Below, piece after piece: positions 1 through 6,632 of a stretch of DNA of 8,636 nt. How positions within the stretch are numbered: position 1 is the stretch's first letter; each line of letters begins with the position of its first letter. This DNA comes from a virus (lineage: Monodnaviria; Loebvirae; Hofneiviricota; Faserviricetes; Tubulavirales; Inoviridae): the IMG/VR virus record IMGVR_UViG_2563366882_000001. One strand, given 5' to 3'. The notes beneath the pieces were generated by a model. The model was not told the DNA's origin, ran no database searches, and saw only the letters and a program-made list of their open reading frames with translations. Both the position numbers and the translations under genes were made by a program.

Positions 1-15
1 TACATTATGCGCACC
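1..15 (-). other. dif: Partial dif-like XerCD recombination site (candidate attL), cut by the window edge
   Basis: Seen: reverse complement of 1-15 is GGTGCGCATAATGTA, identical to the first 15 nt of the 28-bp E. coli dif (XerC arm GGTGCGCATAA plus 4 nt of central region, recalled from memory). The XerD arm would lie left of the window. Confidence 0.6.
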
Positions 16-395
16 AATGGTAAGGATGGCAGAATCTGGCGGGAATCGTTGACACTGGGCGTCAACTGGCTACTATCGACAGTGATTCAAAATCATCCGT
101 TTCTCCAAACGAATCAGAATCAAATGTCTGTCAGCAGTAAGTGAACGGCCTGACCTCACCAATCAGGCCTGTTCATCCAGTTGCAGTTGGTAAATCTGTA
201 CCTGATACATGAAACCTTCCCCAGAAATACAGCCACAATGTCAGATAAGATGAACGCTGCCGCGCCGAATCAGCTATAACGCTCAAAATGAAAACTGTAC
301 GGCTTGGCCAACCCCGGACAGCAACAAAACGAGTTTTGTCACTGACCGGAGTTTACGATAACTTCGTAAGCATTAAATTTTAGCGGCTAAAAAGT

Positions 396-644
396 TCACC
401 ACCACCATGCAAACGGCTTGTTACTGACAGGAAATGCGATACCGTCAGCATCACGACCACGCAAGACCTGATTAAGAAGCTTTCTGACTTCACGGCGCTC
501 TGGCCGGGTCATCATCATATTGCGATACCAGGACGGTGATTTATCAAACCACCTGGAACAACTGGTAAAATGTGAACCAACACGACGGTAAGACTTCATG
601 CGACCACCGGGAAGTCGATCGCGCACCCTGCTTTTTACAGACAT
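396..644 (-). CDS. Hypothetical small basic protein (82 aa), Arg/Trp-rich, ends in WWW; function unknown
   Basis: Six-frame ORF; GAGG Shine-Dalgarno about 6 nt upstream of the ATG at 644; lies between gIV and the dif-like site. I recognise no homolog. Confidence 0.4.
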   Translation of the reverse strand: MSVKSRVRDRLPGGRMKSYRRVGSHFTSCSRWFDKSPSWYRNMMMTRPERREVRKLLNQVLRGRDADGIAFPVSNKPFAWWW

Positions 645-794
645 AAAAAACCTCTAAGTAATTGAATCACCTAGAAGATGTCTTTCTGTTCATATCCTGT
701 CAGTTTTAAGGCCATATAGAGGCTCCGTGGTGAAACGTAAAATCCGGCTCTTGATGGTGCCATACCGGGGCTTAACGCACCCGCCACGGCCCCA

Positions 795-2060
795 TCAAAG
801 AGCGCGAATAATATGAGCGGTCAGCAGAACATACATAATGCGTTGCTCATTACTGTCAGCTTTACTCCTGAAAAGCCAGCCAATCACCGGAATTTTACTG
901 ATAAACGGTACAGAACGGTCAGCATTGCTGGATGATGAATCAATCAGCCCACCAAGTAAGAGCGTCTGGCCATCCTTAATCTGAACTGTTGTCTGTATCT
1001 GACGCTGGTTCGTAATAATATCAGATGCCTGGTCATCGTTGCTGATGGAATCAGCGCGGGTATCAATAGTAAGTACAAGCTGGCCGTTCCCCATAACAAC
1101 AGGCGTCACCTTCAGAGATACGCCAACATCATGACGTTCAATGGTCTGAAACGGATTATTTACCCCGGCAGATTCACCCGTAACTTTACCCGTGATAAAG
1201 GGTACATTTTTACCAACAGAAATATAGCCTGTCTGACCAGACTGGGTAAGAATCCGGGGCGTTGAAATCACCTTAGACCGGGAGTTACTCTGCACCGCAC
1301 GCAGGGATACGGCCAGAACATTACCATCAAAAATGCCAAAAGAGCCGCCGGCAGTCGACAATGCGCTACCCAATGCTGAAGTATTAAAGCCCCCCGCCAC
1401 CTTATGACCAGACGCAGAACCGGCAGCAAACGACAAATCAACACCATCGGATAAACTGGTTTCAAACATCAACGACTGAATTAATACCTGGTCACGGGCA
1501 ACATCTACCGAATTGATAAAATCCGTCAGAACGGGCAGCAGCTCGTCAGGCGCAGAAACAATCAGCGAGTTATTGCCAGGATAATCCACAACATTACCCC
1601 CGCCATTAGAATCCAGATAAATTTTAACCAGTTGCTGAACATCAGACGATCGAACTTTTGTCAGCTTAAAATTTCTGACAGTAAACTCCACTGGCGCTGG
1701 CTGATAAGATGGCTCAGACGGGAAAGAGTCATAAGACCGAATATCAGCATCATCAAGGTCTGACGCCATCTGTGATGGTAATTTTGACGGCAAAGAGACT
1801 ACTGCAGGATTACCCGAAAGCATGACAAATCCGTTAGCATTCAGTACAGATTTGAAGAATCTATCAATATTTGTGGGATTAACATCAGCATTAAATACCG
1901 TTACGGTTCCTTTAACATCAGGATTAACAATAACGGGCTTGCCAGTTTTTGATGAATACCACTGGACAAATGAGCGAACGGATGAATTATTCAGATTAAC
2001 AGTTTCAGCAGAAACGCAAAAAGAATAAGTGAATAAGATAGCAATGAAAAATAAACGCAT
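795..2060 (-). CDS. gIV: Phage secretin pIV (virion export channel), 421 aa from the internal start
   Basis: Long blocks of similarity to M13 pIV as recalled (e.g. GSFGIFNG..., VPRILT.SGQ.G.ISVG.NVPFITG.VTGESA.VNNPFQTIER, C-terminal YVL..A.I.RAL). Start set at Met32 of the track ORF (ATG 2060-2058): AGGAG SD 9 nt upstream and a signal-peptide-like N-terminus MRLFFIAILFTYSFCVSA. The 2061-2153 extension would overlap the gI 3' end. Confidence 0.9.
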   Translation of the reverse strand: MRLFFIAILFTYSFCVSAETVNLNNSSVRSFVQWYSSKTGKPVIVNPDVKGTVTVFNADVNPTNIDRFFKSVLNANGFVMLSGNPAVVSLPSKLPSQMASDLDDADIRSYDSFPSEPSYQPAPVEFTVRNFKLTKVRSSDVQQLVKIYLDSNGGGNVVDYPGNNSLIVSAPDELLPVLTDFINSVDVARDQVLIQSLMFETSLSDGVDLSFAAGSASGHKVAGGFNTSALGSALSTAGGSFGIFDGNVLAVSLRAVQSNSRSKVISTPRILTQSGQTGYISVGKNVPFITGKVTGESAGVNNPFQTIERHDVGVSLKVTPVVMGNGQLVLTIDTRADSISNDDQASDIITNQRQIQTTVQIKDGQTLLLGGLIDSSSSNADRSVPFISKIPVIGWLFRSKADSNEQRIMYVLLTAHIIRAL

Positions 2061-3162: not shown

Positions 3163-3504
3163 TCAAATCACCTTGTTTGCATAATCAAGGAATTTTTGTT
3201 TTAAATCGAAAACAAAAACGCTAATTCGAGTAATCATAATGACATTAACACAGGCCTGAAAATGGTCTGGTAAGACAGATGCAATTAAATGTGAAAAATC
3301 AGCAGGAAGGCCATTGTACATAACCTCAGCAAGATATTGCATTAAGAGAGTGACAGTTGTTGTAATTAATGCAACTAATGCTACGGCTATCAATCCTGTT
3401 TTAGTTGCAAGGCGTGCGAGGAAGCTTGCCACATAGCCAATAAATAAAGGAACAAGCCCAATAAGAAAACGTAATAGTGCAGGAATACCTAATAATAAAG
3501 GCAT
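3163..3504 (-). CDS. gVI: Minor coat protein pVI (113 aa)
   Basis: [14 protein letters not shown]... N-terminus and FVFDLKQK motif match M13 pVI (MPVLLGIPLLLRFL..., FIFDVKQK) as recalled. AGGAGG SD upstream; ATG overlaps the gIII stop by 1 nt (TAATG). Confidence 0.85.
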   Translation of the reverse strand: MPLLLGIPALLRFLIGLVPLFIGYVASFLARLATKTGLIAVALVALITTTVTLLMQYLAEVMYNGLPADFSHLIASVLPDHFQACVNVIMITRISVFVFDLKQKFLDYANKVI

Positions 3505-4794: not shown

Positions 4795-5037
4795 TTAAAC
4801 TGCTTTCGAAGAGAACTTTTTAAACAAACGAATGGCAAGACCCGCACCAACGACAGCGACAACAACAGGCCATACTTTTGCAATAAGATCGTTTGCCTGA
4901 GTCAGCAGTGAATCCATTGCCTGACCTGCATAGTCAGTGCTACCCGTTGCGCCATCAGCAGCAAAACAACTTGCAGAAACAAAAAGTGCGGTTGAAGCCA
5001 CAGCAATTTTAGATTTAATAACAGAAATGACTTTCAT
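4795..5037 (-). CDS. gVIII: Major coat protein pVIII precursor (80 aa) with signal peptide
   Basis: C-terminus [16 protein letters not shown] matches the IKe-type major coat protein as recalled (M13: GIKLFKKFTSKAS). N-terminal signal peptide ends ...SASCFA before ADGATG. GGAG SD upstream. Confidence 0.9.
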
Positions 5038-5066
5038 ATAAATAACTCCATTTAAGTTAGGTTTTA

Positions 5067-5162
5067 TTACATTAATCGGTCAGATAATGTTTTAAACGAA
5101 CCGACCGCATAGAAAAGGGCAAATCCTAAGGTATAAGCCCCGAAGAAATACACAATATACAT
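5067..5162 (-). CDS. gIX: Candidate minor coat protein pIX (31 aa, hydrophobic); not in the ORF track
   Basis: Hand-translated: MYIVYFFGAYTLGFALFYAVGSFKTLSDRLM. Its ATG overlaps the gVII stop (TAATG), as gVII/gIX do in Ff; size and position match M13 pIX (32 aa). Confidence 0.55.
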   Translation of the reverse strand: MYIVYFFGAYTLGFALFYAVGSFKTLSDRLM

Positions 5163-5894: not shown

Positions 5895-6632
5895 TTCTAT
5901 TCTCCCTACATATTCAGAGAATAATTTGTTTGGAGTATCGATATTCCAGTTACTGCCAAGCGTAAGGTTTAAGTCAATTAATTCTGTTGTTCTTAGCGTC
6001 AATTCAATTCGTAATTTATCTTTAGACCAGTCAAGTAAGCCAGCTTTAACAAACTCTTCTGCTATCTGGTGTCCTTTTTTACCAGAAATATGCTCATCAT
6101 ATTTTGAATAAAATTTCAGGCTCCACCGCCGGGAGTTTTTCCCTAAGTAAACAGTTCCACCTTTACCACAGGCGCGACCATGGCGAGTTTTAGCCTTGAA
6201 TTCTGCGGCATATAGCCATGCGCGGACATTTTCCAGCGTTGATAATGAATACATGTAGTTAATATCAATGCGTGAGATCTTAAATTGCCCTGCCATTACC
6301 TGACGATAGGATGGTAGATCATGAGGAATATGAAGTAATGCCAATATTCTTGCGTAAGCGGTTAATACCAGCCCCTGCAAATCATCGGAGCCAATAACAG
6401 AATGCCCCTGAAGAAATTTTGACGGATTTCCGTCAATATAAAGATGAGTTGCCCGGCCTTCCCCGTCTGATCCAACAGATCGTACTTTCATTGTGGATTC
6501 GTATGAACCGCGAACGGTCAACCGCTTTACTGTTTCCCACTCCACTGCACCGTCAGCATCAACGCTGACGACACTACCGGCCGGTAACGGTCGGTGTGTG
6601 CAAGGAAGAATTCCGGTAAACCAGTCGATCAT
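5580..6632 (-). CDS. gII: Rolling-circle replication initiation protein pII (350 aa)
   Basis: N-terminus MIDWF... and the motifs NPSKFLQGHSVIGSDDL and C-terminal NNVVPLVR match M13 pII (MIDMLVL..., KASPAKVLQGHNVFGTTDL, CNNVVPLVR) as recalled. First gene of the minus-strand operon, divergent from the repressor-like gene. Confidence 0.85.
   Translation of the reverse strand: MIDWFTGILPCTHRPLPAGSVVSVDADGAVEWETVKRLTVRGSYESTMKVRSVGSDGEGRATHLYIDGNPSKFLQGHSVIGSDDLQGLVLTAYARILALLHIPHDLPSYRQVMAGQFKISRIDINYMYSLSTLENVRAWLYAAEFKAKTRHGRACGKGGTVYLGKNSRRWSLKFYSKYDEHISGKKGHQIAEEFVKAGLLDWSKDKLRIELTLRTTELIDLNLTLGSNWNIDTPNKLFSEYVGRIEMNQNAILTDEKIVKLPRKIQSTYLLWKQGANMKEMLPKPTFYRHRKELLSFGIDINFYCESPDSNNVVPLVRTLEAKPAQIPTWVYEKGFIFDYNRISHASNWH

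Follow-up and report, generated by a model that had tools for sequence, protein, structure and literature searches.

A small open reading frame of 82 codons (ORF82), located between the secretin gene gIV and the dif-like end of a filamentous prophage (Inoviridae), is almost certainly a real gene under purifying selection, judging from comparisons across related phages. It is encoded in IMG/VR record IMGVR_UViG_2563366882_000001, all 8,636 nucleotides (nt) of which were analysed (hereafter, the window), and which carries its phage genes on the minus strand. Translation of ORF82 is probably controlled by a short conserved leader ORF, the end of which is predicted to pair with the Shine-Dalgarno (SD) sequence and start codon of ORF82. 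Overall, we lean moderately towards an accessory gene with leader-gated translation and a product directed at the host or at nucleic acids. The predicted protein (MSVKSRVRDRLPGGRMKSYRRVGSHFTSCSRWFDKSPSWYRNMMMTRPERREVRKLLNQVLRGRDADGIAFPVSNKPFAWWW) contains 19 Arg and Lys versus 6 Asp and Glu residues, has 5 Trp and an isoelectric point (pI) of 11.6, and includes a run of three Met (residues 43-45) and a C-terminal WWW. These features, and the location after gIV, had been described accurately in a first-pass annotation of the sequence, which also proposed that an additional small and basic protein is encoded where Ff phages have their intergenic region. Conservation and position both uphold this proposal. 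A regulatory or nucleic-acid-binding product, as suggested there, is plausible. The ORF is annotated by the Prokaryotic Genome Annotation Pipeline as a hypothetical protein (WP_071792182.1).

The length of ORF82 is by itself within chance expectation, as spurious ORFs of 81, 96, and 105 amino acids (aa) occur in other frames of the window. It rises above chance because it is conserved, with 12 intact orthologues, low ratios of non-synonymous to synonymous substitution (dN/dS), and a coding pattern of variation across codon positions. A scan of relatives, using one genome per species, identified 12 full-length relatives in Pantoea, Yersinia pestis, Brenneria, Xenorhabdus, and an enterobacterial metagenome-assembled genome. 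All are exactly 82 codons long without internal stops, and share 66-95% aa identity with ORF82 across residues 1-82. Pairwise Nei-Gojobori dN/dS values among the orthologues ranged from 0.05 to 0.26, and variable alignment columns numbered 30, 26, and 65 at the first, second, and third codon positions, respectively. The frame was intact at 12 of 12 full-length genome loci and 19 of 19 IMG/VR loci. Among complete Escherichia coli genomes, 116 of 5426 carry ORF82, and it was an annotated coding sequence in each of 40 E. coli matches sampled across the ranking. Decayed copies, either frameshifted or deleted (P0014-P0027) or partial (L015-L017), made up a minority of the distinct sequences in the clusters returned (~44/366). 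Disruption of the frame in close relatives alongside conservation of the DNA, which had been named beforehand as grounds for dismissing the gene, is not the pattern observed. In some prophages (Klebsiella spallanzanii L015, 9803-10150; P0021; P0026; P0175), a deletion has placed the last 50 codons of ORF82 behind the N-terminal portion of the secretin gene, a fusion that exemplifies prophage decay through this region.

The first-pass annotation had also considered that the ORF might be spurious and overlie a structured origin, in which case the DNA would be a cis-acting origin or packaging element comparable to the Ff intergenic region. The site does correspond to that region, and the adjacent DNA is strongly structured when folded as single-stranded DNA (ssDNA), exceeding shuffled sequences on both sides of the gene (positions 1-395, z score -4.74; positions 645-800, z -3.32). 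The body of ORF82, however, is no more structured than shuffles (z -0.34), which indicates that hairpin-rich cis elements flank the gene without overlapping it. Nor does ORF82 resemble an Ff-type intergenic region in being noncoding, in having excess ssDNA structure over the element, or in carrying a nick motif: no match to the Ff pII nick-site consensus was found in the whole window at ≤3 mismatches, although this is a weak test, as the nick site here belongs to a different pII type. A search of Rfam with positions 1-900 gave no family and only a chance-level match to OrzO-P (E 0.93). Also at odds with a cis element are the low dN/dS with its excess of third-position variation, the identical length of every full-length orthologue, the occurrence of homologous proteins in tailed phages that lack such an origin, and the presence of the gene alongside two unrelated replication proteins (gII/X family and Rep_trans). 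To the extent that the present data permit, the reading of a spurious ORF over a cis element is refuted, and we regard it as extremely improbable.

By sequence, ORF82 is the orthologue of YPO2280a of the Y. pestis phage YpfPhi and of its counterpart in CUS-1. The Y. pestis homologue is 84% identical over all 82 residues, and each of two tandem YpfPhi copies carries it as the first gene after the secretin (YPO2280), followed by a 65-aa second ORF and then dif. YPO2280a and its CUS-1 homologue have been described as having no predictable function (Derbise & Carniel 2014, PMC4266046), as has gene h1 of UPphi901 (Shapiro & Putonti 2020, PMC7307601). Two putative genes of UPphi were placed in the region that is intergenic in I2-2, IKe, and M13 (PMC7307601). 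ORF82 is probably h1, going by that description and the I2-2-like backbone rather than by sequence comparison. The backbone of the window is of the UPphi/Lineavirus type (gene I has 77% nucleotide identity to Lineavirus I2-2) and differs from that of YpfPhi, while the gene, its place between the secretin and attR/dif, its leader, and its hairpin are shared with YpfPhi/CUS-1. Significant homology between UPphi and YpfPhi was reported for genes II and V only (PMC7307601), a statement that would need amending if ORF82 is h1.

Gene order was constant across the mapped loci (L003-L017), with ORF82 being the first ORF after gIV, on the same strand, and before dif/attR. Its conservation, by protein identity, exceeds that of the adjacent secretin and Zot genes: the Xenorhabdus copies of ORF82 are 66-76% identical, compared with 46-49% for the secretin and 41-47% for Zot relative to those of CUS-1. 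In Pectobacterium polaris (L106, 1-9240), two different inoviruses lie in tandem, each ending with a secretin and then a family member. The first has a GYEQYDIF leader. The second encodes a Rep_trans protein instead of gII, and its 79-aa copy is 65% identical to ORF82, is preceded by a different mini-ORF (MALIFCHARHQGILLHVL, with a UAG stop immediately ahead of the SD), and lies upstream of an Xre_MbcA_ParS_C antitoxin-domain gene. Given its occurrence with different replication modules, ORF82 goes with the distal end of the assembly operon rather than with any replication module. The earlier suggestion of a protein specific to this phage lineage did not hold, given its presence in inoviruses of the UPphi type, of the YpfPhi/CUS-1 type, and of Xenorhabdus, Brenneria, and Pectobacterium, and, at the family level, in many tailed phages.

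An alignment of the interval from gIV to dif showed that homology between UPphi-type phages and YpfPhi begins ~72 nt upstream of the ORF82 ATG, at the ATG of the leader. From there, identity between the window and YpfPhi was 83% in the leader, 85.5% in ORF82, 94% in the downstream hairpin block, and 98% in the 215 nt by dif. Intact leader and ORF82 sequences were also located directly beside the chromosomal dif in Pantoea piersonii (L003, 10001-10402) and, together with an orf65-like gene, in Brenneria sp. (L005, 10001-10622). Upstream of the leader, both loci lacked phage genes, and no site resembling attL could be found in the preceding 4 kb. On the left, homology at these two loci again ended exactly at the leader start codon, as it is between UPphi-type and CUS-1-type phages.

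The leader mini-ORF and the hairpin that hides the ORF82 SD, both conserved, had been overlooked in the first-pass annotation. In the window the leader consists of ATG GCC TTA AAA CTG ACA GGA TAT GAA CAG AAA GAC ATC TTC TAG, and its ATG is preceded, at a distance of 7 nt, by a GGAG SD (the Xenorhabdus and Brenneria loci have GGGG or GAGG). An ORF of 13-14 codons ending in GYEQxDIF-UAG was present at 15 of 15 loci that had been collected through ORF82 homology, independently of the leader. Both this C-terminus and the UAG stop were invariant across orthologous loci, including L001-L014 and L106-L126. The codons for G, E, Q, D, and I changed only synonymously over the 15 loci (GGA/GGG, GAA/GAG, CAG/CAA, GAC/GAT, and ATC/ATT), while x is K, Y, Q, or L, and the N-terminal residues and length vary. 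Because the Q and D codons adjoin the hypervariable x codon within an internal loop that is predicted to be unpaired, their conservation is not accounted for by RNA pairing. A pattern scan of IMG/VR returned 19 leader matches, all on contigs of inovirus size (5-13 kb) and each followed by an intact 82-aa ORF. A looser pattern applied to metagenomes gave 17 true matches, a further 2 true leaders for which ORF82 was cut off or truncated, and 29 chance matches with no family ORF.

Comparable leaders, ending in WYFQKDIF or Y[YF]AEDIF, precede more distant relatives in tailed prophages. In metagenomic locus L154, one of the true matches, a leader (MKKLIGYEQLDIF) located after a higBA-like gene pair, precedes a member of the MSxKN...LGNxKPHxYYW subfamily, members of which are ~30-40% identical to ORF82. 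Leaders of 'MSxKN' members in tailed prophages read MLIRWYFQKDIF (L089/L090), MYYYAEDIF (L091), and MNYFAEDIF (L092), each followed by a stop. No such leader was found in the MSRTYRR- and MANFKRR-type subfamilies. The spacing between leader stop and ORF82 start ranged from 17 to 29 nt among loci without a fixed frame. Read-through or frameshift fusion of the leader to ORF82 was considered as well, and is excluded by this variation.

RNAalifold, applied to 15 orthologous leaders (pairs were counted over 13 distinct sequences), predicted two stacked helices over the end of the leader and the start of ORF82. In the inner helix (helix 2), the final codons of the leader together with its UAG (AUCUUCUAGGUAA) are base-paired to UUACUUAGAGGAU, where the ORF82 SD is located. 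In the outer helix (helix 1), the GGA-UAU-GAR codons of the leader form pairs with a U-run and the AUG-UCU of ORF82, meaning that the ORF82 start codon is predicted to be occluded as well. The 'good SD' of the first-pass annotation does exist, as GAGG 6 nt before the ATG, but it is predicted to be base-paired inside this conserved hairpin. The 9 pairs of helix 1 were 96% paired and the 13 pairs of helix 2 were 98% paired, the latter also showing a single compensatory change (G-C to U-A). Across both helices, 97.2% of cells were standard pairs, compared with 33-57% when the partners were slid. Eight divergent variants were predicted to have the same topology (z -1.45 to -4.39). In another IMG/VR inovirus contig (L108, IMGVR_UViG_2663762939_000001, 8626 nt), where the ORF82 protein is identical and the leader has the same coordinates (671-697), the 3' arm of the hairpin carries a single substitution (ACTTAG to AATTAG). 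In L089, L091/L092, and L154, the leader end is encoded differently (e.g., ATT TTT TAG), and the 3' partner differs accordingly; in L091 it is CCUAAAAU, just before the AUG. Predicted folds for these loci again pair the leader end and stop with the SD, spacer, or AUG (z -2.7 to -3.6).

Taken together, this conservation makes leader-dependent translational control of ORF82 probable. In free mRNA, the hairpin would keep the ORF82 initiation region closed. A ribosome reaching the leader UAG would melt both helices, and initiation of ORF82, 26 nt downstream of the leader stop, would then occur by translational coupling. A nascent-peptide pause at the UAG, which is specific to release factor 1 (RF1), may prolong the opening. 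Such a termination pause is possible because the leader C-terminus is kept as amino acids even where its RNA partner has changed. The expected outcome would be low, conditional synthesis of ORF82. Similar arrangements are known: cat, cmlA, and erm are regulated through translation attenuation by leader peptides, and coupling through SD-occluding hairpins operates in hok/mok and MS2. As in cat, cmlA, and erm, the 3' codons of a short upstream ORF are predicted to form the 5' arm of the hairpin that sequesters the SD, and the leader resembles arrest peptides in that its C-terminus is kept at the amino-acid level while its N-terminus varies. Unlike in cat, cmlA, and erm, the leader stop is always UAG and lies inside the stem, the conserved peptide ends exactly there, the start codon of the regulated gene is predicted to be paired too, and that gene is phage cargo, as opposed to a resistance or secretion gene.

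An occluded SD and AUG with an obligatory upstream ORF is typical of products that are kept at very low levels, and this raises the question of whether ORF82 encodes a growth-inhibiting or addiction-type protein that, through hok/mok-like leader coupling, stabilizes the prophage or episome. Intact cassettes persist in prophage remnants, toxin-antitoxin genes lie nearby at two loci (the higBA-like pair of L154 and the Xre_MbcA_ParS_C gene of L106), and YpfPhi is maintained despite an unstable episomal state (PMC4266046). However, neither the sequence nor the predicted helices contain the transmembrane or hydrophobic segment expected of a type I (hok/mok/sok-like) toxin. The gene that follows ORF82 is variable or missing, as it is in the window, leaving no fixed partner, and decayed copies occur without obvious compensation. 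The Rfam search yielded only its chance-level match, and antisense RNAs or antitoxin partners were not systematically searched for. We therefore consider a toxin or addiction role rather unlikely, and favour conditional, leader-coupled expression of an accessory protein.

ORF82 belongs to a much wider family. A profile search of 1.84 billion representative proteins (E ≤1e-3) recovered at least 150 distant relatives, which were 50-160 aa long with a median pI of 10.5 among the matches listed. They share a C-terminal module of ~50 residues, (S/T)PxWWxNxxxTRPxRRxxKxLxxxIxxGxDxDxxxFPLxxKPHxYYW, that ends exactly at the C-terminus. The YYW terminus was present in 68 of 112 scored members and the others had close variants, of which the terminal WWW of the window is one. 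The 62 and 17 IMG/VR loci of the family are mostly on contigs of 30-350 kb, and, where the context of distant members could be seen, it consisted of tailed-phage contigs with small genes of no known function around them. For example, one member is located between the genes for tail protein L and the gpJ tip-attachment protein, another lies after an endolysin gene and before an ImmA/IrrE gene, and some occupy small-gene regions that also carry AcrIC5, Acb2/Tad1-like, and Tad2-like genes. One viral contig (L077) encodes two paralogues of the family ~800 nt apart (4845-5141 and 5924-6340). When neighbours within 3 kb were clustered for ~50 of the 68 viral and metagenomic loci, those in which the member ORF was located, only neighbours confined to single lineages emerged. 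Among the isolate genomes of INPHARED, a family member was found in one small Salmonella phage record only, and three further queries were empty; sequenced phage isolates hardly contain the family. The literature, searched with sequence words and with 'YYW', yielded nothing.

Searches of Pfam and NCBIfam with ORF82 and 56 family members gave no match, and PHROGs returned only matches of unknown function (phrog_12343, E 4.5e-4) and chance matches. No PDB chain matched the profile of close relatives at E ≤10, and only Prp4 matched the family profile at E ≤1. An AlphaFold2 model based on 34 sequences was mostly helical (mean predicted local distance difference test score, pLDDT, 72.4), with a long helix at residues 38-61, and a fold search with this model gave no match. 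The homology and structure-prediction checks recommended in the first-pass annotation accordingly yielded a family and a helical model, but not a domain or fold match. Mimicry of Wadjet JetB (DUF2398) was considered on the basis of a 16.5-bit match to PADLOC JetB2 (E 6e-4), which was limited to six closely related members and was judged to be due to chance. JetB was not among the PDB matches of the family profiles, although the presence of JetB chains in that PDB set was unconfirmed.

ORF82 is predicted to encode a helical mini-protein of the cytoplasm that is rich in Arg and Lys and ends in aromatic residues. Its Arg-rich N-terminus is variable, whereas R47, R50, and K76 are invariant, and W39, W/Y40, F71, and the C-terminal triad form an aromatic cluster. 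The charge, the conserved residues, the stand-alone occurrence, and the moron-like positions point to a cargo role and to a target that is universal among bacteria, most simply nucleic acid or an enzyme acting on it. On this basis we tentatively suggest, as a possibility with somewhat less than an even chance, that ORF82 binds nucleic acids or host factors for the benefit of the phage or lysogen, such as in counter-defence or host modulation. A role in virion assembly, origin function, or Xer recombination is probably not to be expected. Morons such as lom and bor lie near the tail genes of lambda, and those of the classical kind usually sit between a promoter and a terminator of their own and encode secreted or membrane proteins. 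The ORF82 family is moron-like in occupying variable cargo sites by att or between late genes, independently of core modules, and in moving horizontally between unrelated phage backbones. It differs in that ORF82 is a predicted cytoplasmic basic mini-protein, apparently controlled at the level of translation, and more conserved by sequence than the adjacent core genes.

The position of ORF82, always on the dif-proximal side of the prophage, could alternatively suggest an accessory factor for XerCD at dif/attP, either an activator or a directionality factor. XafT (DUF3653) of TLCphi is reportedly such a Xer activation factor, and ORF82 is likewise a small protein of a dif-integrating element encoded near the attachment site. 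A basic protein could bind DNA, and the leader-ORF82 cassettes beside dif in Pantoea and Brenneria are intact where no phage genes remain. However, dif lies anywhere from about 130 nt to 2.7 kb away from ORF82, unrelated genes intervene, and members in tailed phages occupy early regions or sites flanked by tail genes, without any dif context, the family being mostly in phages that do not use Xer. ORF82 also has no sequence or domain similarity to XafT, nor any DUF3653, helix-turn-helix (HTH), or other Pfam match. Furthermore, the dif side is the usual position for cargo, with the ctxAB genes of CTXphi located at the same place in the genome (PMC4266046). A Xer-related function thus seems very unlikely.

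A regulator of transcription or replication specific to this phage, such as a second repressor or activator acting on its own promoters or origin, would accord with the DNA-binding or regulatory protein suggested in the first-pass annotation and would suit a small, basic, helical protein. Nonetheless, ORF82 is linked neither to the gII/gV module nor to an HTH repressor, and instead occurs with varied replication modules and repressors. Its relatives are found in unrelated tailed phages, and a regulator of phage-specific sites would not be expected to keep a conserved domain across such different genomes. With no HTH or other DNA-binding fold detected, this alternative appears quite unlikely.

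Several observations weigh against leader-gated control and a host- or nucleic-acid-directed product. Compensatory changes occur at only 2 pairs and most pairs are invariant, so that covariation is modest; the fold of the window's own leader is not significantly more stable than shuffles (z -1.45), and hairpin differences between subfamilies were compared by eye. The codons for IF and the stop overlap an anti-SD-like CUUCU, and part of the peptide conservation could therefore be driven by RNA. With the SD only 16 nt past the leader stop, there may be insufficient room for an initiating 30S subunit next to a stalled ribosome, which favours simple coupling over arrest. Translation of both the leader and ORF82 is deduced from conservation only. 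The existence of decayed copies indicates that the gene is dispensable for at least some prophages. Regarding the product, confidence in the AlphaFold2 model is moderate, with a pLDDT of ~50 in the aromatic C-terminal tail, and no domain, fold, or conserved neighbour bears on the biochemistry of ORF82.

The surroundings of ORF82 in the window are summarized in the table below. A G+C-rich hairpin directly follows the gIV stop in the UPphi-type backbone only. The small hairpin just downstream of the ORF82 stop is replaced in YpfPhi by a hairpin of different sequence (TTCGT-ACGC-ACGAA). Further downstream, the hairpin with 21-nt arms was present at Escherichia, Yersinia, Brenneria, Pantoea, and Pectobacterium loci and absent in Xenorhabdus, and is hence not part of a constant cassette. 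The 98% identity to YpfPhi/CUS-1 covers window positions 1-215 (minus strand), which include several hairpins (CAGGCCTGA with TCAGGCCG, GTTGAC with GTCAAC), while gII and gV are 95-96% identical to those of YpfPhi/CUS-1. Together, these sequence identities suggest that a cis-acting origin/attP module travels with the replication genes. A 45-aa ORF on the plus strand (7-144) starts inside dif and is conserved only because the DNA is.

Features of the prophage window around ORF82 and along the phage genome (nt positions).
Feature	Position	Strand	Remarks
ORF82 coding sequence	396..644	minus	82 aa + stop, ATG start; orthologue of YPO2280a; member of the 'MSxKN...YYW' family of small basic proteins
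SD of ORF82 (GAGG)	651..654	minus	6 nt before ATG; within predicted hairpin 3' arm
Leader mini-ORF	671..715	minus	14 codons + UAG; MALKLTGYEQKDIF
Inner RNA hairpin (predicted)	651..677	minus	5' arm AUCUUCUAGGU (last leader codons + UAG); 3' arm ACUUAGAGG (ORF82 SD)
Whole two-tier structure (predicted)	637..700	minus	outer helix: leader GGA-UAU-GA(A) with U-run and AUG-UCU of ORF82
G+C-rich hairpin	751..798	minus	19-nt arms; directly after gIV stop; absent in CUS-1/YpfPhi
Small hairpin TTTTAGC-C-GCTAAAA, then short T run	378..392	minus	immediately after ORF82 stop; possible terminator
Hairpin with 21-nt arms	310..353	minus	CCGGTCAGTGACAAAAC..GTTTTGTTGCTGTCCGG; downstream of ORF82; conserved
dif XerC arm and start of central region	1..15	minus	GGTGCGCATAATGTA; prophage end
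gIV (secretin)	2153-795	minus	same strand as ORF82
gI	3162-2068	minus	
gVI	3504-3163	minus	pVI of DUF5455 type
gIII	end at 3504	minus	
gVIII	5037-4795	minus	
gV	5568-5251	minus	
gII	6632-5580	minus	

Second accessory genes next to ORF82 differ between phage types. In YpfPhi/CUS-1, the second ORF encodes 65 aa (MTHQELKVMLL...VSGTDLPTNWMNRPDW) and is probably YPO2281 (L002, 4499-4696; L004, 10446-10643). The window, where this ORF is largely deleted, retains a remnant at 173-286 (minus strand) that lacks ~150 nt and has its 3' end (..VSGTDLPT..) inside a 37-aa ORF starting with TTG. Other UPphi-type prophages, e.g., that of E. coli ERP001, carry an acidic 81-aa gene, which in L126 (2155-2400, minus strand of the locus) is convergent to ORF82, lies between ORF82 and dif, and is possibly 'h2'. 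It is absent from the window, so that ORF82 has no need of it in cis. On its plus strand, the window has a sigma-70-like promoter (49-76, TTGACA-16-TACTAT) that faces the place where this gene would be expected. At tandem-prophage junctions (L004, ~10795-10830; L002, ~4850-4900; L006, ~8930-9040), the sequence reads GGTGCGCATAA-TGTACGACTCG-TTATGTTGAAA, placing the dif-like arms 11 nt apart instead of 6, and Brenneria alni has a second, inverted dif-like site ~50 nt later. A folded single-strand attP like that of CTXphi has been proposed for YpfPhi (PMC4266046), and the 11-nt junctions fit such a structure.

ORF82 was already annotated, and is represented in the literature as a gene of unknown function. 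New with respect to the literature and libraries searched are its orthology across UPphi-type and YpfPhi/CUS-1-type phages, the large uncharacterized 'YYW-end' family that it has in common with tailed phages, its conservation above that of adjacent core genes, and the conserved DIF-UAG leader with its predicted SD- and AUG-occluding hairpin. Plague bacilli, as well as extra-intestinal and urinary E. coli, harbour prophages of the YpfPhi, CUS-1, and UPphi kinds, which have been linked to modest effects on fitness or virulence, and ORF82 is the most conserved cargo of this whole group. Together with these findings, the compact and mutable control region, consisting of leader and hairpin, makes this anonymous ORF a tractable experimental target, and the leader is a candidate new regulatory peptide. 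A bolder and distinctly speculative idea, which we consider doubtful, is that leaders ending in [YW]xxxDIF-UAG are a previously undescribed nascent-peptide sensor, pausing or arresting at an RF1-dependent stop, that under a particular cellular condition would switch on a small basic pan-phage effector, a new kind of host-directed or counter-defence protein. If so, the YYW-end effector could contribute to the fitness effects of YpfPhi and CUS-1 in Y. pestis and extra-intestinal pathogenic E. coli.

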